Origin: an uncultured Verrucomicrobiae bacterium
GTDB taxonomy: Bacteria; Verrucomicrobiota; Verrucomicrobiia; Limisphaerales; Palsa-1400
NCBI GenBank assembly: GCA_963764165.1
Contig: CAVXRD010000001.1
Location: forward strand, 1,309,959-1,373,958
Direction of reading: 5' to 3'
DNA: 64,000 nt
How positions within the stretch are numbered: the stretch's first letter is position 1; every line of letters begins with the position of its first letter. Below the pieces are notes generated by a model. The model did no database searches. It worked only from the letters and a program-made list of their open reading frames with translations, and was not told the DNA's origin. The position numbers and the translations under genes are program-made. Below, piece after piece: positions 9,198-53,908 of the stretch.

Positions 9198-9225
9198 TGC
9201 AAGAGCGACGATCAAGGAAATGTCG

Positions 9226-19173: not shown

Positions 19174-19176
19174 GTG

Positions 19177-21460: not shown

Positions 21461-22333
21461 CTATCTAGGGGCCGGAATCGCCGGCGGCACCACCCAGCCC
21501 GCGTGCCAATAAAGGTTCCACAGGCCAGTTAGCTTCACGTAAGCCGAATGTCCGTCGTAAAAGGTCATATTGATGCCGTTTTGCATGCTCGCGCTGGAAG
21601 TGATCGCCGTCGGAGCAACGCCGGGCGGCTGCGACCCGTGCCGCGCAATCGTGAATCGTCCCATGTCGAAGTTGGCATTGCCGTTGTAAAGATCCGCCGA
21701 GGGGCCTTCCGTTTCCTGCGGCCATCCGTCAACCCACATCGCATCGCCAAATATGGGCGTGTCGGTAACGTGCGCGACCGTGCTCGGGTTGGAGTATATC
21801 CAGCTCTCAGGCGCGCCTAGAAGGTCGGCAACAGAATACGTTCCGCTGTAGAGCCACCCGTTGTAAGCATAGCTTCCCGCATAATTAGTAACCGTCGGCG
21901 CCCATTTCCACATTTGAGTGGCATCGCCGTAGGTATATTCGGGGCTTGCCAGCGTCCGCGTCGTCGCCGCACTAGCCAGCGGGCAAACCCGGACCATGTT
22001 CACCTGCGCCTGATAACTCAGCAACATCGCCATCCAGAGATTCTCGTCTCCTGTGTATTGGAATTCCTTTCCAAAATCACCGACATACATGGAATGGGAG
22101 ACGCCCAATTGCTTGAGATTGCTGAGGCATTGCGTGCTGGACGCGCTCAATTTTGCCCGCGAAAGCGCCGGCAGCAGCAGCGCCGCTAGAATCGCGATGA
22201 TGGCAATCACCACCAATAACTCGACCAAAGTGAAGCCGCGCGGTCGAGGGATGAACCCCACCTCGGCGAATTTCATCGCATTCGGTGTTCGACCGATTGC
22301 GATAGGCGCAATGGCTAGCTCGTCGCGCGTCAT
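21461..22333 (-). CDS. prepilin-type N-terminal cleavage/methylation domain protein, DUF1559-like (pseudopilin-like)
   Basis: [43 protein letters not shown]; C-terminal [12 protein letters not shown]. The ATG at 22333 overlaps the upstream stop (ATGA). An alternative start is MKFAEVGF at 22276. The stop abuts the next gene's start (21460). Confidence 0.85.
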
Positions 22334-25020: not shown

Positions 25021-25119
25021 ATTTTTAATTGGATCCGGGCCAAGGTTTTTACTGAAATCGCCCATATTCTAGGCGATTGCCAAAATTTGTCATGTCGCGC
25101 AAATGAACTACGCCACCTG

Positions 25120-25752
25120 CTACGGACTCGATTGCATCAATTTCGCAACGGCCTGCGACCGCGAGTGGACGTGCAGTTTCTCGTAGATGCGCCGAATATG
25201 GGTGCGGACCGTTACAAAACTGATTCCCAATTGGTCCGCAATCTCTTTGATGAGATGCCCCTTCGAGAGCATCTTCAAGACCTCAGTTTCCCTCGCGGAA
25301 AGCTGGGCCGTCGCCTCGCTGGGCTTGCCGCCGTGGAAGAACTGAACGACTTTGCGCGCGATTTGGCTGCTCATGGGCGATCCACCGCGGTGCGCATCGC
25401 GGATCGCTTCCGGCAAGTTCTCCGAAAGCTGCTGCTTGAGCATATACCCGATGGCGCCCGCGCGCAGAGCGTCGAAAATTTGTTCCGGGTTTTCGTATAC
25501 CGTCAGCATGATGACACGGAGCGCCGGATCGATGGCGTGAAGTTTTTGGACGCATTCAACGCCGTTCATCGCTGGCAAATTGATGTCCATGAGCAGGATG
25601 TCGGGGCGCGCCCGCGGGATGTCGCGGAGCGCGGCTTCGGCGGATGAATAATTGGCCAGAAGGCGGAACTCGCTGGACTTGTCGAGCAGACGCACAAGTC
25701 CGGCACGAACACCGTCGTCGTCCTCAACTATGGAAACAGCAATGGGCACCAT
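25120..25752 (-). CDS. NarL/FixJ (LuxR-type HTH) response regulator
   Basis: Start moved to MVPIAVSIVEDDDG (25752). Receiver: ILLMDINLPAMNG, VIMLTVYE. LuxR HTH: LSARETEVLKMLSKGHLIKEIADQLGISFVTVRTHIRRIYEKLHV. The 108 upstream codons of the track ORF read through repeat elements (..IASLNHRLQARIPAGM..) and are rejected. Confidence 0.88.
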   Translation of the reverse strand: MVPIAVSIVEDDDGVRAGLVRLLDKSSEFRLLANYSSAEAALRDIPRARPDILLMDINLPAMNGVECVQKLHAIDPALRVIMLTVYENPEQIFDALRAGAIGYMLKQQLSENLPEAIRDAHRGGSPMSSQIARKVVQFFHGGKPSEATAQLSARETEVLKMLSKGHLIKEIADQLGISFVTVRTHIRRIYEKLHVHSRSQAVAKLMQSSP

Positions 25753-25861
25753 TGGATTGGTGCCGCCATTGTATACCGGAATGGGCGTCGTCCAATAAGA
25801 AAAGCGGTTTGTGGCTGTCGTGCAAATGAAGGACACGGCAGAAAGTGAGACGCGGTAGGGC

Positions 25862-25997
25862 GAGAATGCCAATGAACCTGTCCGATAAGCGGGGGTGGGC
25901 AGCATCCCGGCAGGGATGCGAGCTTGTAGCCGGTGGTTGAGCGAAGCGATACCACCGGAAACACGTCCGATAAACCCCTGCATCCTGGAAGGATGCC
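25862..25997 (+). repeat. structured repeat family A (hairpin, CCGGTGGTTGAGCGAAGCGAYACCACCGG hairpin, hairpin), copy 1
   Basis: gcatcccggcagggatgc-gagcttgtag-ccggtggttgagcgaagcgataccaccgg-aaacacg...-gcatcctggaaggatgc. About 90% identical by eye to the reverse complement of 28997..29094. The 5' part (gagaatgccaatgaac...) also matches 28788..28896 in direct orientation. Confidence 0.75.
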
Positions 25998-26010
25998 AGC
26001 ATGAACACTT

Positions 26011-26209
26011 GCGCCGCCACGCGTGGCGGGGAGAGAGAAGGAGAGAGGGGCTTTTCATAAAAATTTCGCGAAGCAATGCGAGTTGTAAGCGTTTGGGTTT
26101 CAGTTGTTTGCTAGACTCCCCCTCTCCCTAACCCTCTCCCCACTTCGCAGGGCGAGGGAATCAGAACGAGTCCTTCTGTTATTTGAATGCCATAAACTGA
26201 GATGCGCCC
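26011..26209. mobile_element. partial second copy of the 263-bp MITE found at 32485..32747 (opposite orientation, one end missing)
   Basis: Shares ccgccacgcgtggcggggagagagaaggagagaggggc, ccctctccctaaccctctccccacttcgcagggcgagggaa and the terminal aaactgagatgcgccc (ends 26209) with the reverse complement of the 32485..32747 element. The other terminus is replaced by the family-A repeat. Confidence 0.55.
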
Positions 26210-26289
26210 GCGAGCAAAAAATTCACATTAGGTTCTTGCTTTTGTGTCTATTCCCGGCTTTAAGTTTCCCGGCCTGTTGTCGGAGATGC

Positions 26290-28749
26290 ATGTTCATGCG
26301 TGGTCGTTCACATTGGAATCTGCTGGTCGGCATAAGCTGCTTATGGCTTTTTCTGGCTGCGCCACAGGTGTCGCGCTCCCAATCGTTCACCAACTCCGCC
26401 ACTCTGGCGGCTTCGACGGATGGGACGAATTTGATCATCAACTACTCCCTAGCTGCGGCGCAGGGATGGGTGACGCTCTTTTCGGCCTCCACGCCGCAAA
26501 TGCTTCTCACCAACGCCAAACCGGTGTGCTTGGCCGCTGCGACCCCTTCGCTTACCGGGCGGTTCACGGTTCCCATTCATTCAAACGCGCCTGTGCAATT
26601 TTATCGGCTCCTTCTCGAGCAATGGCCCACACGCGGGCAGGTGCTCGTCTTCACAAACGGCCCTATTGACTTTGCCGCCATGCTGGCAACGTATGGCAGT
26701 ATCACGAACAGTTCTCAGCCGTTTTTTGAAGGCAATGATGGTGATATAGAACCGACGAATTCCATCCCGATGATTTATACTCAACCGGTGGCCGTCTGGA
26801 TTGACAACCTCGGAACCTATAATACAAACGGCGCGTTAGTCGGTCCGAATGAAGGACTTTTGATTGGGAAATACGCGCAAACCTCGCTTGACACATTCAG
26901 CGATTGCGATTCCGATGCCTGTCCGGTCGCTCCCCTGTATTCGGCGAGTAACGATTTCCGCGTTCTTTACATGGGCGATTCAAACGTGACTGCAAGAGAA
27001 GGAGTTCTCTGGAGTTCTCAAGCGCAACTTTATTGCGACATCAATCGGTACCGCGAGCAATTCCTGAACGACGCCTTTATTGACAAATTGCAGTTGACGC
27101 CACAGATCGCAGCTAACTTAAAATACCTTCAATACCGACCGGACTTGATTAATCCATTTGATCTAGATCCCGACATTTATGCCGAGCCAACTATGGAAAT
27201 GTACGAGTTTTCTTTGCCAGATGGCATTCAGCTTTTCCCTGCCGAGAATATCGAAAGCGTCATCGTCAGAACCCGTGGCCCATTCAATAACGACGCATCT
27301 CTCCCACCGATTTCAGTTGCTTATGATTCAGGGGCCACCGTGGGGAATTATGCAACGCTGGCGGCGAATTGGATTCTCGGCACAAACACGGGAACTCCTT
27401 CAGATGCGTTTTACGGCTCAGCCGAACCGGGCGCGAATTGGGAGAACGATGTCCTTTCCCCTTTCGTCAACGGCCTATCTGCTTGGGTTGCCTATCGTCT
27501 CACCGGAACGAATGAGGTGTATACCCAACTTTCGTACATGCTCCGTATCTGGAATGGCTCGGCCTGCGGCGGGACCTGGATTCCCTGCGACAGAGGCCAA
27601 AACATCAGCAATGTAATGATGTTCAACGCCGCAGAAACGGACGCGGAAGGCGTCTTTCCCTTCACAGTGGCGGAAAATGTGACCTCTTACGACGGCCCTG
27701 TAGCCTCCGATCTTGCGGCTCTTTACTTCGGGGCCATTTTTTATGATATTGCCAATGAATCTGGATTGGGCTTGTACAAAACCGACTTGTTAATCTGGAA
27801 GACGCTCTCCCTTGTCACGAATGATCCGAACAGTTTGAGCATGGTTCAGTTTGGGGCCTACGTGCAGCAAGCGGCCCGCCTGCTTTGGCCCGACCTGCGC
27901 GAAGCCTATTCCGGTATGAGCCTTTACGAAAATGACCTCGTTGACGTCCTTGCCTCACGCGGGATTCCTATGAATGGGGTCTCCGATTTTCAGTCCAATT
28001 TACCGCCTTATATCGGCTCATATCCGGATACGCTGGAATACGACGGTCCCGGATTCGGTTCTAAGCATCCTGACATCCAAGCTCAAGTGAATGCCTACGG
28101 CGTTTATCAAGTCAATTACAACACTTTCACTTATTCAAACCCCGCGTCCTACGTCGCCTACCAGATCTATAAACACTCGAAGTATGGACCCTGCGATGAA
28201 GTCGCCATAACTGACGGAACCTTCACCATCAACCAGAACCCACCTTTCAATTGGTCCTATAATTACGACGGCACATTTTACACCGAGCTCTCGAATCGAT
28301 TCGGAAATTTGATTCTTTTTCTCCCAGGTACGGAGGTAAATTTTTTACGGAGCCGCCAGCGCTGCCCCGATGAGGCAACGGGTTCTTATGCCGAGGATGT
28401 GCAACCTTTTGGTTTTATTGTCACCCAAGCCATACCGAATGGATTTTCTTTCACTGTCTCCGCCCTGTCCTCAAACAGTGTTTTCAAAACCTATCAACTG
28501 ACGATTGTTGATCCCTCCACTAACACCCTGGGCGCCGCGAGTTACGCCTGGGCGTTCACGGATTACATGGGAAACATAGCCACCGTCTCCGGAAGCAGCG
28601 TCGAATACGACGCCAACATTGACGAGCCTTTCACCCTCAGCATTACCCGCACGCGCGGGAGCCAGAGCGACACGATTACCATGAGGGAGCGCGGCAATGA
28701 CCTCGACCGTGCCGGGGGCAATGCTTTCGTCAGGAACCTGGTGCCATAA
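26290..28749 (+). CDS. exported 819-aa protein of unknown function (N-terminal FYR-type beta domain)
   Basis: Start moved to MFMRGRSHWNLLVGISCLWLFLAAPQVSRSQS (signal peptide). The 62 upstream codons of track ORF 26104.. translate repeat DNA (PLSLTLSPLRRARE). The N-terminal domain ends ...RFTVPIHSNAPVQFYRLLLEQ. No HExxH or other catalytic motif was recognised. The gene looks AT-richer than its neighbours by eye. Confidence 0.8.
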   Translation: MFMRGRSHWNLLVGISCLWLFLAAPQVSRSQSFTNSATLAASTDGTNLIINYSLAAAQGWVTLFSASTPQMLLTNAKPVCLAAATPSLTGRFTVPIHSNAPVQFYRLLLEQWPTRGQVLVFTNGPIDFAAMLATYGSITNSSQPFFEGNDGDIEPTNSIPMIYTQPVAVWIDNLGTYNTNGALVGPNEGLLIGKYAQTSLDTFSDCDSDACPVAPLYSASNDFRVLYMGDSNVTAREGVLWSSQAQLYCDINRYREQFLNDAFIDKLQLTPQIAANLKYLQYRPDLINPFDLDPDIYAEPTMEMYEFSLPDGIQLFPAENIESVIVRTRGPFNNDASLPPISVAYDSGATVGNYATLAANWILGTNTGTPSDAFYGSAEPGANWENDVLSPFVNGLSAWVAYRLTGTNEVYTQLSYMLRIWNGSACGGTWIPCDRGQNISNVMMFNAAETDAEGVFPFTVAENVTSYDGPVASDLAALYFGAIFYDIANESGLGLYKTDLLIWKTLSLVTNDPNSLSMVQFGAYVQQAARLLWPDLREAYSGMSLYENDLVDVLASRGIPMNGVSDFQSNLPPYIGSYPDTLEYDGPGFGSKHPDIQAQVNAYGVYQVNYNTFTYSNPASYVAYQIYKHSKYGPCDEVAITDGTFTINQNPPFNWSYNYDGTFYTELSNRFGNLILFLPGTEVNFLRSRQRCPDEATGSYAEDVQPFGFIVTQAIPNGFSFTVSALSSNSVFKTYQLTIVDPSTNTLGAASYAWAFTDYMGNIATVSGSSVEYDANIDEPFTLSITRTRGSQSDTITMRERGNDLDRAGGNAFVRNLVP

Positions 28750-36487: not shown

Positions 36488-36684
36488 ATTTCGACAGTAG
36501 AGTTCTCCCCTTTTTCCCACCCGGAAATCGCCTCCGGGGCGTTATCAAGAGAACACAGGCTACGGCAATTTTTGAAAAAGAAAAGGACAAAATATGACTG
36601 TCGTGAAGAAATAAAAGCGCCCGCGCCTTGGCGCGAACGCTGTCAATTGCATTTATGGCCCGCGCCTGTTCGGCGCAAGGAGTC

Positions 36685-38418
36685 TCACGCCACCGGCGCG
36701 GGAGTTTCAGCGGGAGCCGGATTCTCCGCCGGAGCTTCCATCGGACCGTCAATCATATTCTCTCCCGGGGAATCGGTTGCCCCTTCGGCTGGAGTTTCCG
36801 CGGGAGCGGCTGCCTGCTCCGCAGAGGGGGCCGCGGCGGCTGCCCCGGCCGAGCTGGCGGCTTCGCCGCCGGGTGCGGGCGCGGGCTTGGCGCTGGCGGG
36901 TTTCTCCGGTTTCGGAGGCCGTGGCGCGGGCTTCTTGGCGGTTTCCAAAATCCCGTTGGCGTATTCAATGACGTGGCCTTCGTGGATCAGCCAGTGCAAA
37001 TCGCTGGCGAGGGCCGTCTGCTCGGGGGTGGCTGCGGGCTGAGCTGGCGCAACGGGCGCAGCAGGGGCGGCCGGGGCTGCGCCTTCCGCTCCTGGCGCTG
37101 TTTCAGCAGGTGCTGGGGCAGGAGCCGGAGCGGCGGCGGCCGCCGGGGCAGGCGCGGGAGCCAAAGTTTCCAACAATTTCTTGCGCGTGGCCTTCGCAGT
37201 GGAATTGATGAACTCCACGATGCGTTTGACACCTTCGGAAACCGGCGAGGCTTCCATGTCCAGATAGCGCGGCCGGGCCACCGACACGTGGGTGACCGTT
37301 TTGTTGACTTTGAAAAATTGCAGGCCAAACCCGGCGAATTGCTGGCTCAGCACGGTGGCCAGTTGCAGCGGAAAACGCCGCTGCTCTTCCCACGCGATGC
37401 GAACCGCGCGCTGCAATCCCTGCGAGCGGACCTGCTTGGCTGCGGCTCCACCCATCATGCACGTCTCGACCGGCTTGATGATATTGGGAAGGTGAACCGA
37501 GCGGAAGTGCGCGTTGACCTCGTCGCGGTTGGCCAATTTTTTCGGCTCGGGGACGTTCAGGCAATTGTATTCGGTTTTGAAGCTGTGGTCCTCAATCCAT
37601 TGCTTGACCACCGCCTCATCGCGGACGATTTTCACGCGCGCCTTGTAAACCTCGAACGGCATGTTGGAGAAGCGTTCGGAATGCAGCTTGTGCAACTGCG
37701 ATTGGTAATCGTGGTAGTTGGGAGGTCCGAGAACCTTGCCGCTCATGCCGCATTGGGCAACGAACGTGTAAGTTCCCTTGGGCGGCTCGGTGGCGGTGCG
37801 CTCCGGCTGGTAGAACATCTGGAAGTGCCGGCCCAGAACATGATTGACAGCCTCTTCCTCGCTCAGCCACAGGCTTTCGTCCACAGCGCAAAGATACATC
37901 AATTGAATGATTTTCCCCTCGGCGTCTTTCTTGACATCGAACCGGACCTGCTGCCGCTCCGGCTTCTGCAAAATAAGGCGGGCGATGTCAAAAAGCGGAT
38001 AGGCCCGGCCCGTGACGCGAATCTGCCGCGCGAGCGATTCCACGCCCTTCTCTTCCGGCAAAATCGAAACGGTTACCGGCGGCGGAAGCGGAGCTTCCTC
38101 ACGCGGCGCCGAACGATCCTGGCGCCGATCATCGGGACGGCCGCCCCGCCGGTCTCCACCGGGGCCGGCGAAGCCACCGCGTGGCTGCGGGCGTCCGCCA
38201 GCCGGACGAGGGCCGCCTTGGCCTTCGCGGCGCGGGCCGCCCTGCCCTTCGCGGCGCTGAGGACGGCGGCCGGGCCGGTCATCAAATTTTCGTTCCGACC
38301 GTTCCTCGCCCTGGAAATTGGCGTAACGGTTCGTTTGGGGCGCGTCCTGGGCCCAGGCGGGCAGGAACAGCTTTTCCAAGTCAAAATCGGGTTCAGAGGA
38401 CGTACTCATTGCTGACAT
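36685..38418 (-). CDS. conserved-looking hypothetical protein with RGG/Pro-rich N-terminus and Ala/Pro-rich C-terminus
   Basis: 577 aa. N-terminal DRPGRRPQRREGQGGPRREGQGGPRPAGGRPQPRGGFAGPGGDRRGGRPDDRR. The globular core (LFDIARLILQKPERQQVRFDVKKD...YTFVAQCGMSGKVLGPPNYHDYQSQL...) has normal composition. The overlapping + strand 595-aa ORF is Arg/Gly-rich antisense noise. Confidence 0.75.
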   Translation of the reverse strand: MSAMSTSSEPDFDLEKLFLPAWAQDAPQTNRYANFQGEERSERKFDDRPGRRPQRREGQGGPRREGQGGPRPAGGRPQPRGGFAGPGGDRRGGRPDDRRQDRSAPREEAPLPPPVTVSILPEEKGVESLARQIRVTGRAYPLFDIARLILQKPERQQVRFDVKKDAEGKIIQLMYLCAVDESLWLSEEEAVNHVLGRHFQMFYQPERTATEPPKGTYTFVAQCGMSGKVLGPPNYHDYQSQLHKLHSERFSNMPFEVYKARVKIVRDEAVVKQWIEDHSFKTEYNCLNVPEPKKLANRDEVNAHFRSVHLPNIIKPVETCMMGGAAAKQVRSQGLQRAVRIAWEEQRRFPLQLATVLSQQFAGFGLQFFKVNKTVTHVSVARPRYLDMEASPVSEGVKRIVEFINSTAKATRKKLLETLAPAPAPAAAAAPAPAPAPAETAPGAEGAAPAAPAAPVAPAQPAATPEQTALASDLHWLIHEGHVIEYANGILETAKKPAPRPPKPEKPASAKPAPAPGGEAASSAGAAAAAPSAEQAAAPAETPAEGATDSPGENMIDGPMEAPAENPAPAETPAPVA

Positions 38419-42720: not shown

Positions 42721-42782
42721 GGGCGGCAACGAGTCCTTTTTTGATTTGGTTCTGGAATTTCCTTGATATACATTTCACTGCA

Positions 42783-43133
42783 ATGTATTCTCCTCTTGTG
42801 AAGTTGGAAAAGGAATTGGTGGCGGCTTCGTCGGCGCCGCTGGTGCTTTCGATCCTGGGTGAGGGCGATAGCTACGGCTATGCCATCATTCAGCGCGTCA
42901 GGACGATTTCCGATGGCAAGATCACGTGGACGGACGGAATGCTGTATCCCGTTTTGCACTGGCTGGAGGATCAAGGCCAGGTGGAAAGCCGCTGGGTTAC
43001 TGCCGAAAACGGACGGGAACGGAAATATTATGCGTTGACCGATAAAGGTCGGAAGGCGCTCCAAAAGCATCAGGAACAGTGGTCTGCCGTCAACTCGGCC
43101 TTGAATCAATTTTGGAAGCCGCGCCATGCCTGA
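42783..43133 (+). CDS. PadR family transcriptional regulator
   Basis: Start chosen at MYSPLVKLEKEL. Winged-helix PadR pattern LVLSILGEGDSYGYAIIQRV...GMLYPVLHWLEDQGQVESRW...RKYYALTDKGRKAL. Confidence 0.85.
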   Translation: MYSPLVKLEKELVAASSAPLVLSILGEGDSYGYAIIQRVRTISDGKITWTDGMLYPVLHWLEDQGQVESRWVTAENGRERKYYALTDKGRKALQKHQEQWSAVNSALNQFWKPRHA

Positions 43134-44139
43134 CATCGAGACACGGATCGCGGAGTGGCGCAGCCGGCTGATCTCGGCAGGCGTCAATACCGAGATTTGC
43201 AGGGAGCTCGAAAGCCATTTACGCGAGAAGGTGGACGAATTTCGGCGCTCGGGAGCCACGGAAACCGAGGCCTTGGAACGAGCCGCCGCGGAAGTGGGTT
43301 CGCCACCCGAGATTGCATCCGAATTCAAAAAACTCCGGCCGACCCTGTGGCTGCCTGTTAAAATCACGATGGCCATCGGGATCGCGTCGGGAATTCTGGT
43401 GGGCGCTCCGATGGCCGCCAGTCTTGATGGGGCCGAAAGCTTCCTAGCTCTGGGCCATATTTTCAACCTGACGCTCGGCTATATCGTCGCGCTTCTGGCG
43501 GGCGTGCTCGGTATTTGCTTTGTGTGCCAGAGAGTTTTTTCAAACTTCCCGCGGACGCGATTGCCCGCGTTAAGGCTTGTCACTTCGAGGTTTGTTTCCC
43601 TTGCTGCGGCGCTGACTGCTTGTGGTATTATTCTGGGCTTCGTCTTGATGCAAACGCAAGAGATGCGCGATCGAGGATGGAGACCCGCCATGCCAGGAAT
43701 GAACGCGCACGCCGTCCGGGGTCCAGTAATACGACGCGGAGGCAAGCGGATCGAAGGGGGAGTGATGCAAAGTCTTTCAATTTTTCCAATGTGGGCGGCT
43801 CGCCCGCCGGCGTGGCCGCCTTGGGTATACGAAGGAGATGTGGACTTGACGATCATGCACAACAACCGTCTCGCCACAGGATGGCTGATGAAAGGGAAGG
43901 CCGCGGCTTCGGTGTGCGTGCTGTTGTGGCTGGTTTTGGTGCTGGCCGTCCAGCGCTCCCGCAGCCTGGACGAGCGTGGAATTCAGCTCTTAAACATTCT
44001 AAGCATCGGCTTGGTTGGCCTGGCAACACTTGGGCCGTTTCTGCCGCCGATAGTGCTAAGCCTCGTCTTTTTCCTCATTGGGCTCGCTCCAGAGAGATGG
44101 TTTCGCCGGTCACTGTCATTCGCGGCGTCTCCTCAGTAG
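43126..44139 (+). CDS. membrane protein with PadR-associated N-terminal 'permease prefix'-like helix domain
   Basis: 337 aa. It overlaps the PadR stop by 8 nt. N-terminus MPDIETRIAEWRSRL...ELESHLREKVDEFRRSGATETEALERAAAEVGSPPEIASEFKK, then several TM helices. Confidence 0.65.
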   Translation: MPDIETRIAEWRSRLISAGVNTEICRELESHLREKVDEFRRSGATETEALERAAAEVGSPPEIASEFKKLRPTLWLPVKITMAIGIASGILVGAPMAASLDGAESFLALGHIFNLTLGYIVALLAGVLGICFVCQRVFSNFPRTRLPALRLVTSRFVSLAAALTACGIILGFVLMQTQEMRDRGWRPAMPGMNAHAVRGPVIRRGGKRIEGGVMQSLSIFPMWAARPPAWPPWVYEGDVDLTIMHNNRLATGWLMKGKAAASVCVLLWLVLVLAVQRSRSLDERGIQLLNILSIGLVGLATLGPFLPPIVLSLVFFLIGLAPERWFRRSLSFAASPQ

Positions 44140-45162
44140 TCATCGATGCGCGGAGCAATGCTGTTGGAGCCACACGATATCCTGATCGTTTGGCACCGAA
44201 TCGGATGTCCACGAATAATAGGTATTGGGAATCATAGGGGGTTCGGTTCGGGGATCCAGCCATCGATGAACTTCCGAGTGTCCGTCCGCAAACGAAATGC
44301 CGCTGCAGCCGTTATGATAGTTGGCCGGAATATTGGCGAATCGGGCATTGGCGTTTGTGGCCGTCATCGACACGACAAAATAGGCGTCATTAATGGAGTC
44401 CGCTCTTTCGTCGATAAACACGAACGCATTTGCCGGACCGGGATTCTGAATGCTCGAGAGCTTGCCGGGATTGTTAAAATCAGCAACCGGGGCGGTGCTA
44501 TAATCGCCGCCATTCATCCTCATGTTCATGGAAACAGAGCGGACGCGGGATTGGATGGACCCGTTGATATAGACCGTGCTGGGATCCGAAGGGCACACAT
44601 AGAGCGGCAACGATTTGGAATAGGGCCAAAGCAAGCCTTTCGGACTCATTAGATTAGTGACGCTGGTATTGTCAGAGTCGGTCGGGTTGGACCAATCCAT
44701 CCAGCCTGCCGCCCAACTGTTCGTGTTGTAGGTCAAAACGTCGTCACCCAGCGTGTTAGTGACCAGCAAATCGGCGGAATCGCCGGCGTATAACGTCCAG
44801 GCGATGCTTAATTGTTTCATGTTGGATGAGCATTTGATTCCCTTCGCCTGTTCTTTGGATTTCGCTAATGCCGGAAGCAGCAACGACGCCACGATGGCAA
44901 TGATGGCAATAACCACCAGCAATTCGATCAGGGTGAATGCTTTCGTGTCCGCAACCCTGAGCCGGATGGTTTGGGGAGCGCACGCGCCTCGCGTGCCGTG
45001 TTCCGCGCCCTCGCGGAACACATTCGATGCCTGAACCGTTCGGTTGGACGAATTTGCCAAAGGCGACTGGCGAGGCGCCAGTCGTCCACACCCGAGGGCG
45101 GGTGTGCTCCCCGTGAAATGAACCGCATCGTCCCGGCTAAGTTTTTGCCATGATGCCTTCAT
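44140..45162 (-). CDS. prepilin-type N-terminal cleavage/methylation domain protein, DUF1559 / H-X9-DG family (pseudopilin-like)
   Basis: [46 protein letters not shown]9-DG motif [17 protein letters not shown]. The 80-codon leader before the prepilin helix contains a GC-rich palindromic element (44973..45021), and no other in-frame ATG/GTG lies closer, so the start is uncertain. Confidence 0.8.
44973..45021. repeat. GC-rich REP-like element (GGGGAGCGCACGCGCC core plus the palindrome GTGTTCCGCG..CGCGGAACAC)
   Basis: ggggagcgcacgcgcctcgcgtgc matches ggggagcgcacgcgcccccgcgtgc at 52010..52034. It is followed by the hairpin gtgttccgcgccctcgcggaacac (44998..45021). Confidence 0.55.
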
Positions 45163-45186
45163 GATTTAGTTGTATTTTTTTTGGTA

Positions 45187-46926
45187 TTACTCTGGCCAAA
45201 CCGCGTCGCAATCCTTGCTCTGAAAGGCGGGGCCTCGCACGCCGCCCTTGTCCGTCCCGCCCCATCCCATTGAGTAAAGAATAAACGTGCCATCAGCGGC
45301 GCGGTGATAATGAGGAGGCTGTCCACCGATGACATCCCGCGGGATTTTATCAATGAACTGCGGGGAAAGAGCGTCAAGGGTTTCGGGATATTCGCCGTGG
45401 GCCAGCCGGTGGCGTTCGAGGGCGCAGACAATGAGCGCCTGATTCACCTGCGTCTGGCTGTGGGCGGCATTTTGACAAATCCGGAGGAAATTAATTGTGC
45501 CCAGGCTGGCAATCGCGGCATATGGCGTCCCGTTTGTAAACGACCGCGCCTTCATCATGGCAGCCTCGACTTTGTCCGGGAAAATGAAGGATCTTGCGGC
45601 ATCGAGGCCCGATGCAAATTCCAGTTCAATGTTAATCCGGGCGGCCATTTTCTGGTAGCCCCAGCCTGCCGGGAAGACCCCACCAATGGCTGCGCTGCTC
45701 GGCGTTGTCCAGGTATTGGTGTTGCGATCCAGGGCGTTGCACGTCTGCATTCGGTCGATATCGAAGGCTTGTTGCACCGGCGGCAGGATTTGGATTGTTT
45801 TGAGCTGCTCTTCGAGCACGGCCAATTGCGGTTCGCGCCAGGCTTTCAAGCGGACGCCCTCCGAGACTTGCGTCGCGTAAAGTCCTCTGATGGCTGAGTT
45901 AATCATTGCCCCCAGCCACATCATCGGCTTGTTCGCTTCGAAGACGGGGTGGCAAAAATCATGCGCCAGCGTCAGGTCGCGCAGCGATTCCCCGGGCTGG
46001 CCCAAAAGAAAATGACATTCCGCTCTGGCGGCCAGAATTTGCGCAAGGTGCCGGGCGGAGACGAAATTAGGCGTTGGAACGGTCTGCTGATACTCATAGG
46101 AGCCCGCCATCCTTGCTTTTGGACGCAGCAATGCCTGGCGTATCAATGCGAATTGGGGCTCGAGCTTGTCACTCCACGCCAGATAATCATCCACTCTCGC
46201 GAGAACAGGCATGGTTAAACGATAGGAACCGCCGCCACCCGGCTCAATCTTCAGCACCCGCTCGGACAAATCCGGTTTTGCGCGCAGGATGGAGTCGGGC
46301 AGAAAATTCTGCAGATCCTTTTCAGTCGGCGCAGCCTGGCATTGCAAAAAAATTCGCGCCGCATGGACCTCCTCTGGCCGCCGCAGCATCAACCCCACAC
46401 CGATCGAAGATTCCGGCGCGGTGGCCGTAGGCCCGATGGCATTTGTCACCAACCGCGCGGCTTCCGCCGACGCCGCCTTATCGTCCCACCGCAGTGCCAC
46501 AGCGCCGTCAGGCGCTGCCCCTCCCGCCAGGCCAACGGTCAGTTCGGCAACAGTGATGCGCGCGGCATTGCTGTCGATGTTAATCCCCGGATAAGTCGGA
46601 GAGGACAATTCCTTTGACAAGTCGTTCCATCCTCCGTCGCCTCGTCCGACAAACCATTTTTGCATCTCGGGAACGCCGAAGAAGTTTTCATCCGCGGGCA
46701 CCGGCTCGGGAATGGTCTCGGCCCAATTCTGCTTGACACCTTGGCTTGCCAGGCGGCGCTTGCAATTTTCCCAAGCCCGCCGCCCGCGCCAATTTTCCTC
46801 TGCGTAAAGGAGCCCGATCAAGCCCGCGCAAAACGCGAAGCCGAGAAAACGAAGCAGGAGTATTTTCCTGCCTCTCGTTCGTTCAGCACCCGCCGAGGGT
46901 TTTCGCCCGTCGTTCATGCGCATCAA
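45187..46926 (-). CDS. N-terminally anchored hypothetical protein with GspG-like C-terminal motif
   Basis: 579 aa. TM ILLLRFLGFAFCAGLIGLLY, then ENWRGRRAWENCKRRL. The C-terminus IPRDVIGGQPPHYHRAADGTFILYSMGWGGTDKGGV...DCDAVWPE recalls the P.DPWG.PY.Y....G.F.L.S.G.DG..GG...D...W ending of major T2SS pseudopilins. It lies directly upstream of a DUF1559 gene. Confidence 0.7.
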   Translation of the reverse strand: MMRMNDGRKPSAGAERTRGRKILLLRFLGFAFCAGLIGLLYAEENWRGRRAWENCKRRLASQGVKQNWAETIPEPVPADENFFGVPEMQKWFVGRGDGGWNDLSKELSSPTYPGINIDSNAARITVAELTVGLAGGAAPDGAVALRWDDKAASAEAARLVTNAIGPTATAPESSIGVGLMLRRPEEVHAARIFLQCQAAPTEKDLQNFLPDSILRAKPDLSERVLKIEPGGGGSYRLTMPVLARVDDYLAWSDKLEPQFALIRQALLRPKARMAGSYEYQQTVPTPNFVSARHLAQILAARAECHFLLGQPGESLRDLTLAHDFCHPVFEANKPMMWLGAMINSAIRGLYATQVSEGVRLKAWREPQLAVLEEQLKTIQILPPVQQAFDIDRMQTCNALDRNTNTWTTPSSAAIGGVFPAGWGYQKMAARINIELEFASGLDAARSFIFPDKVEAAMMKARSFTNGTPYAAIASLGTINFLRICQNAAHSQTQVNQALIVCALERHRLAHGEYPETLDALSPQFIDKIPRDVIGGQPPHYHRAADGTFILYSMGWGGTDKGGVRGPAFQSKDCDAVWPE

Positions 46927-47038
46927 TCACCGGCGTCCGCAAAAAGTCTTAAGTTTTCATTTTATGGCATTATTTTGACAAGATGGACTGCAGAGCGTCA
47001 CGCGCCGGGTGTGAGACAGAATTCTACTGGCGGTCTTT

Positions 47039-47250
47039 TCATTAACACACCGCTTCAGCGGGGTGGTCCGTGGCCGCGAAAGGAGAAACCGTTTTAACGG
47101 TTTCCGGCGTTGCCTTGGCTTGCGTCACCGCCTGAATGTGTTCTGTTTCTGTCCATTCCCCCTCCCGTAAGTGGCGCGATGACAAAACCGTTAAAACGGT
47201 TTTTGTGGCTCCGGCTGCGCCCACACCCCGCTGAAGCGGTGTGTTAATGA
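47039..47250. mobile_element. 212-bp MITE-like element with perfect 27-bp terminal inverted repeats
   Basis: tcattaacacaccgcttcagcggggtg (47039..47065) is the exact reverse complement of caccccgctgaagcggtgtgttaatga (47224..47250). Internal palindromes aaaccgttttaacggttt and aaaccgttaaaacggttt. Confidence 0.8.
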
Positions 47251-47407
47251 AATGCACGGTGAGCGCAAAATATGCGGCCGTATATAAATTCGTCCGGCTA
47301 CCATGAGGGAAATTACGCTCGAAGAATTTTGCCTCACAACCTCTGGCGCGAGGCAACATGTTTTATCCTGTTCATCTTGTCCAAGAATCTGGATAATTAC
47401 CAATCAT

Positions 47408-47779
47408 ATGTCTGTTTCGATTTACTACAGCGCCAAGCGGCGGACCCCGCTGACGGCGTCGGAAAAGGAGATTGTCGGCGCGATTGTCCGCTGGTTCTCT
47501 GTTGATAAGAAAATAGAGAAGTATATGCAGTCGGGCGAGGGACTGAATTGGGAATCTTTTTGCGTTTACGACAAGCCGTCGGCCCCGGATGTGATATTTG
47601 AGGGAGCAACGAAGCTGCCCGACAACACCAAAGAAGCAGTGTGGACTGGCGTTTGGCACTGGTGTTCCCTGCTTTCATTCATCCGGCTCGTGTTGCACGA
47701 CGCCGAGTGGCGGGTTGCAGTCGAGAATCACCGTATCAAATGGAACGAGCAGGAGCGAAGATACGATCCTCGCACCTAA
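47408..47779 (+). CDS. hypothetical protein (123 aa)
   Basis: Internal start MSVSIYYSAKRRTPLTASEKEIVGAIV of ORF 47303..47779. Ordinary amino-acid composition. No family recognised. It lies between repeat elements. Confidence 0.4.
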   Translation: MSVSIYYSAKRRTPLTASEKEIVGAIVRWFSVDKKIEKYMQSGEGLNWESFCVYDKPSAPDVIFEGATKLPDNTKEAVWTGVWHWCSLLSFIRLVLHDAEWRVAVENHRIKWNEQERRYDPRT

Positions 47780-47870
47780 CCGCGAAAGGGCGGTGGTTAG
47801 CCTGCATTCGAATCTTGCAGGCCGCGAGCCCTTACGCGGCGGACGCCGGGTCAGTGGACCTGGCTAAACC

Positions 47871-47930
47871 GAATCCCGGCGGGATGCCGGATTGCAGCCG
47901 GTGGTTGAGCGGCAGCGACACCACCGGATT
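47871..47930 (+). repeat. structured repeat family A, copy 4
   Basis: gaatcccggcgggatgccggattgcagccggtggttgagcggcagcgacaccaccggatt. Confidence 0.65.
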
Positions 47931-48048
47931 ATGATTTAGAACTGGCATGCACCCCGAAAGCGGGTGCCAGAATCCGGCGTAAAAAACGACGCACGGTATT
48001 TGGACGGCGATGGGACGCCTTTCAGGGTCCGGGAGATTTTTGACATTG

Positions 48049-48107
48049 TTTCCGGTGGTGTCGCTGCCGCTCAACCACCAGCTACAATCTTCGATGCCTC
48101 CGGCATC
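48049..48107 (-). repeat. structured repeat family A, copy 5 (inverted partner of copy 4)
   Basis: tttccggtggtgtcgctgccgctcaaccaccagctacaatcttcgatgcctccggcatc, the reverse orientation of the family core. Confidence 0.65.
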
Positions 48108-48190
48108 CGTAGCGGCATCTCCAGCGGGCGGCGTCCATGGGTTTCGCATTCTTAAATCGCTTGTTCTAACCATCTATTCCTGCTCTCATT

Positions 48191-48395
48191 CAGAGCGTGT
48201 TTGGAAAATAGCTTGGGTAAGGGATTGCGAGCGCGGCGGGGCGGATGGCGAGGCAGCCCGCAGAGCGGGCAGCTATTAATTTGTTCTGACTCGACGAAGG
48301 AAAATATCCCTCATGGATCTTCGACTGAGGAGCAACGAAGCCAGCCGCCCCGCCCCGCCGCAACACCGCCCAAGCTATTTTCAAAACACGCTCTC
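48191..48395. mobile_element. 205-bp MITE-like hairpin element (25/27 matching terminal inverted repeats)
   Basis: cagagcgtgtttggaaaatagcttggg (48191..48217) against cccaagctattttcaaaacacgctctc (48369..48395). Internal arms gcggcggggcgg / ccgccccgccccgccgc are also complementary. It ends 12 nt before the 48407 start codon. Confidence 0.7.
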
Positions 48396-48406
48396 AGTCA
48401 AATCCC

Positions 48407-50750: not shown

Positions 50751-51812
50751 GTGACAGCCAATTCTTCAACGCTCGCCGGACGCGGCACGGCCAGCAATCC
50801 GGCCAACCGCTTCGAGCAGATCACCGTCGAGCGCGATCCGGATTGGAATCCGGAGGAGGACGTTGCGCCGCGAACACAATTCCTCCGCGACGCCTCGCAA
50901 ACGGCCATCACTTACAACGACAGCCCCGACATCCCATTCAACGCCAGCATCAACCCCTACCGCGGCTGCGAGCATGGCTGTGTCTATTGTTATGCGCGGC
51001 CGTTTCACGAATTTCTCGGATTTTCGGCGGGGCTCGATTTCGAGACGAAAATCATGGTGAAGGAAAATGCGCCCCAGCTTTTGCGCAAGGAACTCGGTTC
51101 GAAAAAATGGAAGCCGCAAGTTATTTGCATGAGCGGCGTGACGGATTGTTACCAACCCGCGGAGCGGAAGTTCCGGTTGACGCGCGGCTGCCTCGAAGTC
51201 CTGGCGGAATGCCGCAATCCGGTCGGCATCATCACGAAAAATTTCCTCGTGACACGCGACATCGACGTCTTGCAGGAGCTGGCGAAATATCACGCAGCCA
51301 GCGTTTGCGTCTCCGTCACCACGCTGGATTCCGATTTGGCGCGCGCGCTGGAGCCCCGCACGTCCTCGCCGCGGCAGCGTTTGCAGGCGATTGAAATGCT
51401 GGCCAAAGCCGGAATTCATGTGGGCGTCAACGTGGCGCCGATCATCCCGGGCCTGACCGATCACGAAATTCTGCCCATCGTGCAAGCCTGCGCGGATGCG
51501 GGGGCGAATTTTGCGGGCTACACGATCGTGCGCTTGCCGTATGCCGTGAAAGATTTGTTCGAGCAATGGCTGGACGCCCACGCGCCCGGCAAAAAGGAAA
51601 AAGTGCTCAACCGCATTCGCTCGATGCGCGACGGAAAACTAAACGTCTCCGACTTCGGACGCCGCATGTCTGGCGAAGGGATTTTCGCCGATCAAATCCG
51701 GCAATCCTTCGCCGTCGCCCGCCGCAAAGCCGGATTGAACGGAGACCGTTATGAGCTTTCGAGCGCCGCCTTTCGGCGGCCACAGGGAGCGCAGTTGGGG
51801 TTGGATTTATGA
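50751..51812 (+). CDS. radical SAM protein, PA0069 / SplB-like (DNA photolyase-like) family
   Basis: CxxxCxxC cluster motif INPYRGCEHGCVYCYARPFHEFLGF. The family N-terminus GRGTASNPANRF begins just after the GTG at 50751, the start chosen here. The track start 50514 lies inside repeat family C. Confidence 0.8.
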   Translation: MTANSSTLAGRGTASNPANRFEQITVERDPDWNPEEDVAPRTQFLRDASQTAITYNDSPDIPFNASINPYRGCEHGCVYCYARPFHEFLGFSAGLDFETKIMVKENAPQLLRKELGSKKWKPQVICMSGVTDCYQPAERKFRLTRGCLEVLAECRNPVGIITKNFLVTRDIDVLQELAKYHAASVCVSVTTLDSDLARALEPRTSSPRQRLQAIEMLAKAGIHVGVNVAPIIPGLTDHEILPIVQACADAGANFAGYTIVRLPYAVKDLFEQWLDAHAPGKKEKVLNRIRSMRDGKLNVSDFGRRMSGEGIFADQIRQSFAVARRKAGLNGDRYELSSAAFRRPQGAQLGLDL

Positions 51813-53908
51813 GGCGCTTTTTCAGCTCCGCTAGGAGCGACATAGATGTAGATAACCGACATCATGAGAACCAAAAGCTCCGCAGGAGCGGCACATTCCG
51901 TTTGGCGTCAATTCAGGCGCCGCCTCTCTGCTGCATTGCGGAAGATGCGGTCGGCGGGGGCGCCGACCGCGACACGCGAGGGCGCATGTGCTCCCCAGAC
52001 TCTGATTCCGGGGAGCGCACGCGCCCCCGCGTGCAGCGGGACGCGCCTCGCGGCCCGCATCAGGAATGCGCAGAAATTCAGAAATCTGCAACGTGCGCCA
52101 TTGCCATCTCTGTAATCGCGTTTTATTTCTTTTCGCTTGGTTGCACTGCCCTAGCTCAACTCTCCTCGACCGAAGAAAAAGAGCCGCGCTCCGCGTTGCA
52201 AGACGTCATCCTCCATGTAAACCAAGTGGCTTACGATCAAATGGCCCCAAAATTTGCCGTGGTGGAGACCGCCGAACGGCTTCCGGAATCGAGCGCATTT
52301 CGAGTGAAGGACGCGCTGAGTTCTTCGACGGCTTTCGAAGGAAAGTTGGAGGCAAGCCAGAAGTGCGCGGAATGGTTTCCTGGAAGATATTTTTATCGGG
52401 CTGACTTCTCCTCATTGCAGCAGCCGGGCCATTTCAAGCTCGCTATCGCGCAGAATGGAAAGGAACGCGAGTCCTATGATTTCGAAATCGGGAAAAGCGC
52501 GCTGGCCACGCAAACCGTGCCAGCCATTATCCAATATTACCGTCATCAGCGGGCGAATTCGCCGGAAGAATTGAAGGCAGACGAGCATGTGCTTCTCTAC
52601 GGCAGCACCAACCGGGTTGATTTGCGCGGAGGCTGGTGTGACGCTTCGGGGGATGTCAGCAAATACTTTTCGCATTTGGCCTACGCCAATTTCATGTCGC
52701 CCCAGCAGACGCCCCTGGTGGTTTGGTCCATGGTCAATGCAGTGGACACCGCTCCCGCCCTGCTCGACAGCTTGCGACAAAAAACACCGTTGATGGATGA
52801 AGCCATCTACGGCGCCGATTACGTCATGCGTTCGCTCTCGCCGGGAGATTATTTTTACATGACGCTGTTCAGCTATTTTAAAAAAGATCCTGAGGAGCGC
52901 CGGGTCGTCGGGCTGCTGGCGGACAGCAAAACGACCGCGGATTACCAATGCGCGTTTCGCGAAGGAGGCGGGATGGCCATCGCCGCCTTGGCCCGCATTT
53001 CGCAATGGAAGAAAGACGGGCAATTTTCGTCGGGGCAATATCTGGACGGCGCGGTGCGGGCGTTCGCGCATTTGCTTGTCAACAACACAAAATACGACGA
53101 TGATGGCAAAGAGAATATCATTGACGATTACTGCGCCTTGATGGCGGCCACCGAATTATGGATGGCGACGGACAAGGCCCTCTATCGCGACGAAGCGAGG
53201 AAACGCGCGAAAAATCTTGCCGGAAGAATGTCGACGGAAGGATACTTCATCGCCAATGACGGCGGGCGCCCCTTCTGGCACGCGTCGGACGCCGGGCTGC
53301 CGGTCATTGCCTTGGCGCGTTATCTTGACAAGGAAAATGACCTGCCCTCCCGGCAGAAGGCGCTCGGCACGATCAAGAAATTCCTGGATTACCAATTGCG
53401 GGTCACCACGAATGCCAGCAATCCTTTTGGGTATGCGCGCCAGTCGTTTCTGTTTCGCGGGCAGGTCAAGGATGGCTTTTTCATCCCGCATGAAAACGAA
53501 AGCGGCTGGTGGTGGCAGGGGGAAAATGCGCGCTTGGCATCTCTTGCGGCGGCCGCGATTGTCGGAGGGCGGCTGGTTTATCCAGGATCGGGCGCGTTCG
53601 GAGTCAAACCAGAGTTGGCCAATTTTGCCAGCGACCAGTTGGCGTGGATATTGGGCAAAAATCCCTTTGATATGTGTTTCATGTATCAGTTCGGACGCAA
53701 CAATGTCCCTTACATGAGTTCCAGTTTTGGCCACGGCTCGGGCCGGGGTGGGATTTCCAACGGCATCACCGGCAAAGATGGCAGTCCGGATGGTTCAGGC
53801 ATTGACTTCAAAACGCACGCCAACGGCAACGAATGGCGCTGGACTGAGCAATGGCTGCCGCATTCCGCGTGGTTCCTGCAGGCGGTGGCTGCGATGTCCA
53901 CACAATGA
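51809..53908 (+). CDS. glycoside hydrolase family 9-like (N-terminal Ig-like CelD_N domain + (alpha/alpha)6 barrel)
   Basis: VNQVAYDQMAPKFAVV...DFSSLQQPGHFKLAI...SYDFEI (Ig-like N domain). DLRGGWCDASGDVSKY corresponds to GH9 GGWYDAGDHVKF. NPFDMCFMYQFGRNNVPY and WTEQWLPHSAWFL are C-terminal GH9-like motifs. The ATG at 51809 overlaps the upstream stop (ATGA), but the first ~85 codons cross a GC-rich hairpin repeat. The hydrophobic segment AIAISVIAFYFFSLGCTALA suggests a later, unidentified start. Confidence 0.7.
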   Translation: MRRFFSSARSDIDVDNRHHENQKLRRSGTFRLASIQAPPLCCIAEDAVGGGADRDTRGRMCSPDSDSGERTRPRVQRDAPRGPHQECAEIQKSATCAIAISVIAFYFFSLGCTALAQLSSTEEKEPRSALQDVILHVNQVAYDQMAPKFAVVETAERLPESSAFRVKDALSSSTAFEGKLEASQKCAEWFPGRYFYRADFSSLQQPGHFKLAIAQNGKERESYDFEIGKSALATQTVPAIIQYYRHQRANSPEELKADEHVLLYGSTNRVDLRGGWCDASGDVSKYFSHLAYANFMSPQQTPLVVWSMVNAVDTAPALLDSLRQKTPLMDEAIYGADYVMRSLSPGDYFYMTLFSYFKKDPEERRVVGLLADSKTTADYQCAFREGGGMAIAALARISQWKKDGQFSSGQYLDGAVRAFAHLLVNNTKYDDDGKENIIDDYCALMAATELWMATDKALYRDEARKRAKNLAGRMSTEGYFIANDGGRPFWHASDAGLPVIALARYLDKENDLPSRQKALGTIKKFLDYQLRVTTNASNPFGYARQSFLFRGQVKDGFFIPHENESGWWWQGENARLASLAAAAIVGGRLVYPGSGAFGVKPELANFASDQLAWILGKNPFDMCFMYQFGRNNVPYMSSSFGHGSGRGGISNGITGKDGSPDGSGIDFKTHANGNEWRWTEQWLPHSAWFLQAVAAMSTQ
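51973..52032. repeat. GC-rich REP-like hairpin (23-nt arms)
   Basis: acgcgagggcgcatgtgctcccc (51973..51995) against ggggagcgcacgcgcccccgcgt (52010..52032), near-perfect inverted repeats. The right arm matches 44973..44996. Confidence 0.6.

Follow-up and report, generated by a model that had tools for sequence, protein, structure and literature searches.

The 64-kb window studied here, by which we mean the whole 64,000-nucleotide stretch of an uncultured Verrucomicrobiae bacterium presented above, contains at positions 44140–46926 two reverse-strand genes that comparison of gene order in related genomes shows to be a conserved, tightly spaced two-gene unit. The upstream gene, here termed X (45187–46926), encodes a membrane-anchored protein of 579 amino acids (aa) when read from a TTG codon and belongs to a large unannotated family of Verrucomicrobiota; its database twin P0001 is 100% identical and begins at the adjoining ATG codon (46923), giving 578 aa. 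The downstream gene, located 24 nt 3' of X, is a prepilin-type H-X9-DG/DUF1559-like gene (44140–45162) with a maximal open reading frame (ORF) of 340 aa. What is new here is the reuse of a pseudopilin fold in a membrane protein that is linked to extracytoplasmic function (ECF) sigma factors and locked to a prepilin-like partner. No description of the X family or of the X–prepilin pairing was found in the literature on DUF1559, H-X9-DG, and pseudopilins with ECF/anti-sigma factors. We tentatively propose that X is a pseudopilin-mimic envelope sensor or docking protein, from a family associated with ECF modules, that would act on the neighboring prepilin-like protein.

Conservation of the X–prepilin gene pair

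In a neighbor-joining tree of X proteins built with 200 bootstrap replicates, the window copy (WIN) and the proteins from loci L082, L084, L086, L088, and L116, which are 83, 59, 57, 60, and 59% identical to it, respectively, form one clade in 200 out of 200 replicates. An orthologous prepilin gene is located 4–70 nt after X in all six clade members, and these prepilins are 67–85% identical (relative to the window protein, 85% in L082, 67% in both L084 and L086, and 70% in L116); the prepilin motif of L084 reads AFMLIELL. The genes that flank the pair vary between genomes, namely beta-lactamase and PadR in the window, F5_F8_type_C and Lactamase_B in L082, GH172 and UbiB in L084, a sulfate transporter (SulP) and a Rex-like gene in L086, an X paralog and sigma/anti-sigma genes in L088, and Rrf2 and an IscS-like aminotransferase in L116. 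The X–prepilin adjacency thus arose a single time in this clade and was retained in all six members while the flanks changed, a pattern typical of genes that form a functional unit.

Two loci outside the window clade also combine X with a prepilin gene. L117, in which X belongs to another clade, contains genes for a sigma factor, a zf-HC2 anti-sigma factor, X, and a prepilin ~37% identical to that of the window, whereas the order in L020 is sigma factor, anti-sigma factor, X, and a short prepilin of 127 aa. Thus, the X–prepilin association arose more than once. The initial neighborhood sample comprised 80 loci from species-representative genomes with X proteins at 33–55% identity (889 kb). The prepilin motif was detected downstream of X in a single one of these loci (L020), and the 889 kb contain five such motifs in total (~0.06 per 10 kb). 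Chance adjacency, as suggested by this one case in 80, was dropped after the closest relatives and the tree had shown a conserved pair.

The partner prepilin matches the N_methyl domain (PF07963; E = 8e-7, 28.8 bits versus a cut-off of 21.2) and TIGR02532 (26.8 bits versus 16.3), and its match to DUF1559 (PF07596) is marginal (25.5 versus 23.3 bits, profile positions 4–132 of 268). The class III cleavage/methylation motif together with the hydrophobic helix (44878–44943, reverse strand) has KA before the cleavage site and the sequence FTLIELLVV, and the mature part of the protein consists of 266 aa from F76. A regular-expression search of the translation located the H-X9-DG motif at residues 283–294 (44281–44316, reverse strand), although no match to the TIGR04294 model was reported at E ≤ 0.1.

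Alignment with the L082 ortholog (85% identical) revealed a 216-nt in-frame, stop-free insertion in the leader-coding region of the window prepilin gene (44937–45152, reverse strand), which is flanked by the imperfect 8-bp direct repeat GAAGGCAT/GAAAGCAT. At the insertion point, the L082 ortholog reads ATGAAGGCA|TTCAC, i.e., ATG AAG GCA | TTC ACA, encoding MKA|FTLIE. The leader of the window prepilin is thereby lengthened to 75 aa, or to 28 aa from the GTG codon at 45021, and departs from the short, positively charged leader expected of such proteins, whereas the orthologous prepilins all have short leaders (~3–16 aa) and lack the insertion. The beginning of the insertion is also present in the independent Logan contig L081, and the whole may be a small mobile element. 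Elsewhere in the window, a palindromic repeat (51945–52053) has two arms ~80% identical to nt 130–184 of the insertion; it falls within the 5' region of the maximal reading frame of a GH9 cellulase gene (51809–53908), the true start of which may be located downstream of the repeat.

The 1.5-kb gap upstream of X (46927–48406) contains three inverted-repeat pairs (47037–47252, 47870–48109, and 48192–48394) with arms of 29–59 nt spaced 122–158 nt apart, resembling miniature inverted-repeat transposable elements (MITEs). These MITE-like elements translate to the peptides 'INTPLQRG' and 'WLSGSDTTG', which recur in spurious ORFs. On the other side of the pair, the gene of a PadR-family regulator overlaps by 8 nt that of a 337-aa membrane protein with 'permease prefix domain 1' (NF038403), and such a combination of a PadR regulator with a membrane protein is a typical pairing. 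This regulator/membrane protein pair (42741–44139, forward strand) converges on the prepilin gene, with the stop codons abutting 0 nt apart (44139/44140).

Membrane anchor and GspG-like head of X

The basic N-terminus of X precedes a hydrophobic N-terminal signal-anchor at residues 22–42 (ILLLRFLGFAFCAGLIGLLYA; 46801–46863), which is followed by a near-invariant motif Y-x-E-E-x-W-R-G; little or no variation is seen at Y41, E43, E44, W46, R47, and G48 across 47 aligned relatives. The charge distribution predicts an N-in/C-out topology. In the AlphaFold2 model of full-length X (mean predicted local distance difference test score, pLDDT, 87.1; predicted template modeling score, pTM, 0.86), the anchor is part of one long helix of ~50 residues (12–61). 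Three further parts, all encoded on the reverse strand like the anchor, can be distinguished: an alpha/beta domain delimited by the secondary structure of the model (~residues 120–250; 46177–46569), a helical-repeat domain resembling tetratricopeptide repeats (TPR; ~residues 288–470; 45517–46065), which covers the model helices 288–464, and a C-terminal GspG-like pseudopilin globular domain (residues 478–579; 45190–45495) with a long alpha1C-like helix, three strands, and a D/G-rich loop. X is predicted from this model to be an inner-membrane-anchored protein with extracytoplasmic alpha/beta, TPR-like, and GspG-like parts.

The alpha/beta domain has no significant fold or sequence match in the PDB, and the helical repeats are weakly matched by TPR_12/TPR_2/TPR_1 in 10–17 of the 47 relatives. 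Foldseek comparison of the full-length model with the PDB returned only non-significant TPR/ARM-type helical matches (E > 0.3); the anti-sigma factor DdvA, which appeared as a match of low probability, was discounted as evidence. Single-sequence searches with X gave no Pfam or NCBIfam match and nothing useful in the PDB.

The best-conserved part of X in the alignment of 47 relatives is the C-terminal block, with the consensus QT.VNQALIACALERYRLAHG.YPETLDAL.PQF.D.IP.D.IGGQP.HYRR..DG.F.LYSIGWN..DDGG...GDWVWP. A profile of this block (A2) compared with all PDB sequences retrieved only XcpT/GspG (2kep, E = 7.8e-4) and EpsG (3gn9, E = 0.23), and its alignment with GspG spans alpha1C through the strands. 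The Pfam domain T2SSG (PF08334) was matched in 27 of 33 relatives, with a best E-value of 6.9e-7, and in 19 of the 47 full-length relatives. The relation to T2SSG was revealed only because profiles of the relatives were used instead of a single sequence. When modeled alone, the C-terminal domain (pLDDT 84.6) forms one long helix and three strands, and among PDB structures Foldseek ranks Vibrio cholerae EpsG (4lw9_A; probability 0.99, E = 0.029, TM 0.49/0.43) first, ahead of type IV pilins. In the loop equivalent to the calcium-binding loop of GspG, residues D559, G561, G562, D574, and W575–W577 are invariant or nearly so among the 47 relatives. Although each of these lines is modest alone, profile, Pfam, and fold comparisons agree, and the resemblance of the head to GspG is real at these levels.

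The first-pass annotation of this DNA had likened the C-terminus of X to that of GspG and had noted that X lacks a prepilin helix. The likeness is borne out by the profile-to-PDB comparison, the T2SSG matches in relatives, and the Foldseek match to EpsG, and the missing helix is in agreement with our search for a class III signal peptide in X, which gave no N_methyl (PF07963) or TIGR02532 match and no FTLIE-type motif in the translation. The ORF positions given there were exact, and the C-terminus that it quoted, IPRDVIGGQPPHYHRAADGTFILYSMGWGGTDKGGV...DAVWPE (beginning with IPRDVIGG), is present in X. The sole hydrophobic helix of X (22–42) is located ~440 residues before the head, and the helix preceding the head (480–510) is amphipathic. 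Since X lacks a class III signal peptide, it is not a pseudopilin; it carries a pseudopilin head grafted onto another protein and cannot serve as an ordinary filament subunit. No gspC–M, secretin, or ATPase genes were found by Pfam among the scanned window genes or in the neighborhoods of the relatives.

ECF sigma factor context of the X family

The 117 relatives of X that were identified are all 'hypothetical' proteins with no Pfam domain on record, and most of them come from metagenome-assembled genomes of Verrucomicrobiota. When 1.84 billion cluster representatives were searched with a profile, the family amounted to 3,811 clusters (50% identity) at E ≤ 1e-30 and to 19,984 at E ≤ 1e-10. Clustering of the X neighbors across the 80 species-representative loci revealed two genes that recur upstream of X on the same strand, one encoding an ECF sigma factor of ~190 aa (46 loci) and the other a single-pass membrane protein of ~150 aa in the anti-sigma position (50 loci). 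Among the 129 sampled family genes, 83 have X in the third place after an ECF sigma factor and a putative anti-sigma factor. Recorded domains at L085, L088, and L117 include Sigma70_r2/r4_2 and zf-HC2, and TIGR02937 (sigma70-ECF) was also matched. The proteins in the anti-sigma position span the membrane once and end in the periplasm with a conserved tail, Q.RLLAEL ... P.PRSE, which could be a ligand for X. The sigma/anti-sigma and prepilin contexts are joined in three loci (L088, L117, and L020); for instance, L088 encodes on one strand the sigma factor, the anti-sigma factor, an X paralog, X, and the prepilin. In the window clade, the sigma/anti-sigma neighbors have been lost in five of the six sampled genomes.

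The sigma gene is preceded in 27 of 78 loci by the dyad TTTGAACCTTTyCG-N8-CGGGGATTGATA (core TTTGAACC-N14-CGGGGATT), located ~10 nt upstream of the sigma start codon (e.g., L085 2782, L088 450, and L020 4683, as well as 24 other loci), whereas no dyad occurred more than 4 times in shuffled sequences. The dyad looks like a candidate autoregulated ECF promoter, transcription from which would yield a nearly leaderless mRNA. The window contains one loose match to this dyad, at 25873 on the forward strand, between a response-regulator gene and the ORF 26104–28749. A scan for generic sigma-70 promoters and terminators gave counts at or below shuffle expectation and was uninformative.

The X family expands by local duplication. 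The sigma–anti-sigma–X unit is repeated 2–3 times in tandem in several genomes (L022, L025, L028, L040, L034, and L011), and X paralogs are found side by side in L088 and L014. Family members also differ in length, as the ~700-aa homologs P0102 and P0108 contain an inserted segment of ~100 aa that matches STN (Secretin/TonB N-terminal) at ~residues 211–240 with 18–21 bits versus a cut-off of 28.4. The STN domain of FecA-type transducers communicates with anti-sigma regulators, and the sub-threshold match in the long X members is a hint only.

Prepilin pairs of the window and possible roles of X

A search for the motif FTL[IV]ELLVV in all six frames of the window identified exactly three prepilin-type genes, with the motif at 9373 (forward strand), 22234, and 44937 (both reverse strand). 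Directly upstream of each of them, on the same strand, is a gene for a large protein that has an N-terminal signal or anchor, in line with the first-pass annotation. Pair 1 (7041–10092, forward strand) consists of a 718-aa signal-peptide protein (7041–9197) and a prepilin/H-X9-DG gene that starts at 9220 or 9226 and ends at 10092, while pair 2 (21461–25065, reverse strand) consists of a 911-aa Ig-domain protein with a signal peptide (22330–25065) and a prepilin gene (21461–22333). Depending on the start codon chosen, the partner-to-prepilin gaps are ~23–29 nt in pair 1 and −4 to +54 nt in pair 2, as compared with 24 nt in pair 3, the X pair. The three genes, which had been called DUF1559 genes, are all prepilin-type proteins of the general DUF1559 kind; however, only the third passes the Pfam DUF1559 cut-off (25.5 versus 23.3 bits, N-terminal half only), whereas the first scores 19 bits, below the cut-off, but passes TIGR04294 for H-X9-DG, and the second has the N_methyl domain only. 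Outside the N-terminal helix, the three proteins are mutually only ~30% identical. Of the ~45 window genes, roughly 8–10 are large and encode an N-terminal hydrophobic segment, and a large exported or anchored partner upstream in three cases out of three is therefore unlikely to have arisen by chance; this count is a post hoc test, and the conservation of each pair in other genomes is the stronger evidence.

The 718-aa partner, for which no Pfam match was found, and the 911-aa partner are conserved in Verrucomicrobiia, with more than 120 clusters each at an identity of at least 56%. In both homologous loci checked for pair 1, the partner (P0144, 65%; P0232, 58%) is followed 0–2 nt downstream by an orthologous prepilin (59–61% identical), and the malate/lactate dehydrogenase gene upstream of pair 1 is syntenic there as well. 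For pair 2, an orthologous prepilin (49% identical) stands after the homolog P0267 (64%) and none after the homolog P0346 (60%), so that this pair is kept in one of the two loci checked. Among five incidental prepilin genes in unrelated loci, one (L068) has an exported same-strand upstream neighbor. The first-pass annotation had proposed a recurring two-gene module, and what stands of it is the co-inheritance of each prepilin with its own partner (6/6 for pair 3, 2/2 for pair 1, and 1/2 for pair 2), whereas the pairing is not general, being found in 8 of ~125 loci of the X family and with one of the five incidental prepilins. Thus, a specific prepilin with a specific partner is a recurring, evolutionarily maintained arrangement that is not universal.

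The otherwise unrelated partners of pairs 1 and 2 both have a [FY][FY]R[VL] motif 4–7 residues from the C-terminus (9150–9197 and 22330–22380), which is present in 120 of 120 and 114 of 120 of their respective homologs (P0118–P0357) and in none of the 117 members of the X family; this tail may be a C-terminal sorting signal common to exported proteins of Verrucomicrobiota. Pair 2 is located downstream of a LuxR-type response regulator (25120–26076), and its prepilin gene is followed on the same strand by genes with no or weak Pfam matches, namely a GH114-like gene (20126–21460) and the genes 19177–20529 and 17212–19173. The same long co-directional cluster occurs at the homologous locus L113, and pair 2 thus belongs to a larger operon (17212–26076, reverse strand). 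A separate region of the window (36628–38418) contains two near-full-length antisense ORFs of 595 aa (forward strand) and 577 aa (reverse strand) that occupy the same 1.8 kb, both with no Pfam match.

Given that prepilin-type genes are abundant and land beside all kinds of genes, the X–prepilin adjacency might have no functional meaning. The window has three prepilin genes in 64 kb, ~117 of 125 family loci have no prepilin neighbor, the intergenic DNA around the pair is rich in repeats, and an insertion is present within the prepilin gene. We consider this highly improbable, and it is largely refuted by the synteny data, since prepilin motifs are rare (5 in 889 kb) and yet an ortholog follows X in 6/6 clade members at 4–70 nt with differing flanks, and since L117 and L020 present two further independent juxtapositions. 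The first-pass annotation had suggested cargo- or adaptor-specific pseudopilins. In such a model, the DUF1559-type prepilins would serve a type II secretion or type IV filament machine, each co-expressed with the exported protein that it pushes out or displays, which would make X a client or an adaptor. In favor of this, a large exported or anchored protein does precede each of the three window prepilins, pairs 1 and 2 recur in other genomes with orthologous prepilins, the partners in these two pairs combine signal peptides with the [FY][FY]R[VL] tail as a possible sorting signal, and L068 adds one more exported protein followed by a prepilin. Nevertheless, four of the five incidental prepilins have no such partner, the pair 2 homolog P0346 has no prepilin, and the Pfam scan of the window genes identified no secretion ATPase, platform, secretin, or prepilin peptidase. 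As to X, its signal-anchor sets it apart from a soluble cargo, the [FY][FY]R[VL] tail is absent (0/117), and its family is mostly tied to sigma/anti-sigma genes (83/129) and not to prepilins, which points to signaling or docking rather than to export. The claim is unproven and probably describes this pair poorly; we regard it as unlikely, with greater plausibility for pairs 1 and 2 than for pair 3.

According to another explanation, X would be an output of the sigma factor, that is, a structural or assembly factor of the envelope such as an accessory of an inner-membrane platform handling pilin-type proteins, and the prepilin would belong to the same regulon or operon with no one-to-one binding. 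The order of sigma factor, anti-sigma factor, and X fits an autoregulated operon with the effector last, tandem units and adjacent X paralogs are known (L022, L025, L028, L040, and L088), and the base of a pseudopilus could accommodate a pilin-like head. This explanation is doubtful, since X has kept a specific orthologous prepilin in 6/6 clade members after leaving the sigma/anti-sigma context, which argues for a specific two-protein relation rather than for mere co-regulation, and the conserved periplasmic tail of the protein in the anti-sigma position needs a partner.

We therefore return to the tentative proposal of a pseudopilin-mimic sensor or docking protein. By this scheme, the X family would comprise extracytoplasmic sensors or modulators of ECF modules, following a third-component logic like that of CnrX or RseB. 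The GspG-like head would serve as a pseudopilin mimic that is non-polymerizing, because the N-terminal assembly helix is missing, and that docks onto pilin-type proteins; in the window clade, its docking target would be the co-encoded prepilin-like protein, which X may bind, retain, or monitor in or at the inner membrane. Ancestrally, X would have reported to the sigma factor, and in the window lineage it would have become an autonomous pair with the prepilin.

Several observations weigh against this proposal. The gene after a sigma/anti-sigma pair may equally be a regulated output and not a sensor. The zf-HC2 domain is present in a subset only of the proteins in the anti-sigma position, and NF052375 ('antisigma') matches at E of ~1e-5 to 1e-6, far below its cut-off, so that the anti-sigma label derives from gene position and weak matches. 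No sigma/anti-sigma genes were found in the window by tblastn with more than 100 sigma/anti-sigma neighbors of the relatives, and the dyad resembling an ECF-type promoter was not found upstream of the window X. The fold match to EpsG is statistically weak (Foldseek E = 0.029, TM about 0.45–0.49), and the window copy of X scores below the T2SSG cut-off (E = 0.038, 14.5 bits versus 21). A prepilin gene is located downstream in only 8 of the ~125 distinct sampled loci of the X family, and therefore prepilin binding is, by gene order, not an obligate function of the family. In addition, the 216-nt leader insertion may impair processing of the window prepilin.

A broader version, which we consider rather improbable, holds that the X family is a new class of envelope sensors whose pseudopilin-mimic head reads the inventory of prepilin-like proteins or the pseudopilus and is coupled to the ECF sigma factor via the small membrane anti-sigma protein. 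The window clade would then represent a derived state, restricted to a single cognate prepilin-like ligand, and individual DUF1559-type prepilins would be dedicated one-to-one partners of particular envelope or exported proteins and not interchangeable filament subunits. The pairing itself gives a lead on the role of the many unexplained pilin-like genes in these bacteria. It makes the vague expansion of DUF1559 paralogs concrete, as individual orthologs are stably co-inherited with specific upstream partners, and one of the partner families has a pseudopilin-fold head but no prepilin helix and is linked to ECF sigma/anti-sigma genes. The X family (3,811 clusters) has no Pfam or NCBIfam model and is definable from its T2SSG-like C-terminal domain and the Y-x-E-E-x-W-R-G motif.

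Four known systems invite comparison. Over its C-terminal ~100 residues, X can be aligned with alpha1C, the strands, and the D/G-rich C-terminal loop of GspG/PulG/XcpT/EpsG (T2SSG, PF08334; TIGR01710); unlike in GspG, this head ends a 480-residue unrelated protein with neither a class III signal peptide nor an adjoining assembly helix, X is located outside any gsp operon, and the window copy is below the family cut-offs. Planctomycetota and Verrucomicrobiota encode tens to hundreds of prepilin-like DUF1559/H-X9-DG genes, some of which are essential; DUF1559 proteins have been described as the largest paralog group, with no assigned function, and two of them are essential in Planctopirus (PMC10632474). 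The partner prepilin is similar to the H-X9-DG/DUF1559 paralog families of Planctomycetota, Verrucomicrobiota, and Lentisphaerota (PF07596, TIGR04294, and TIGR02532) in its FTLIELLVV sequence, partial DUF1559 match above the cut-off, and H-X9-DG motif, and what is new here is the conserved one-to-one pairing of individual orthologs with particular proteins encoded upstream.

Some ECF modules, such as CnrH-CnrY-CnrX and RpoE-RseA-RseB, comprise a third component that acts in the periplasm as a sensor or modulator. The order of an ECF sigma factor, a small single-pass protein, and an anchored or periplasmic third protein is the same in 50 of the 80 X loci; however, CnrX and RseB have no sequence or fold relation to X, the sensor role of which is suggested by gene position only, and X of the window has no sigma/anti-sigma neighbors. 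In Pseudomonas aeruginosa, the pilin inventory is sensed in the inner membrane by PilS, a histidine kinase that senses PilA via transmembrane segments. PilS and X may have in common the concept of surveying pilin-type proteins from the membrane and passing the signal on to transcription, whereas the candidate contact of X would be a periplasmic pilin-like head, and its output would be an ECF sigma factor.

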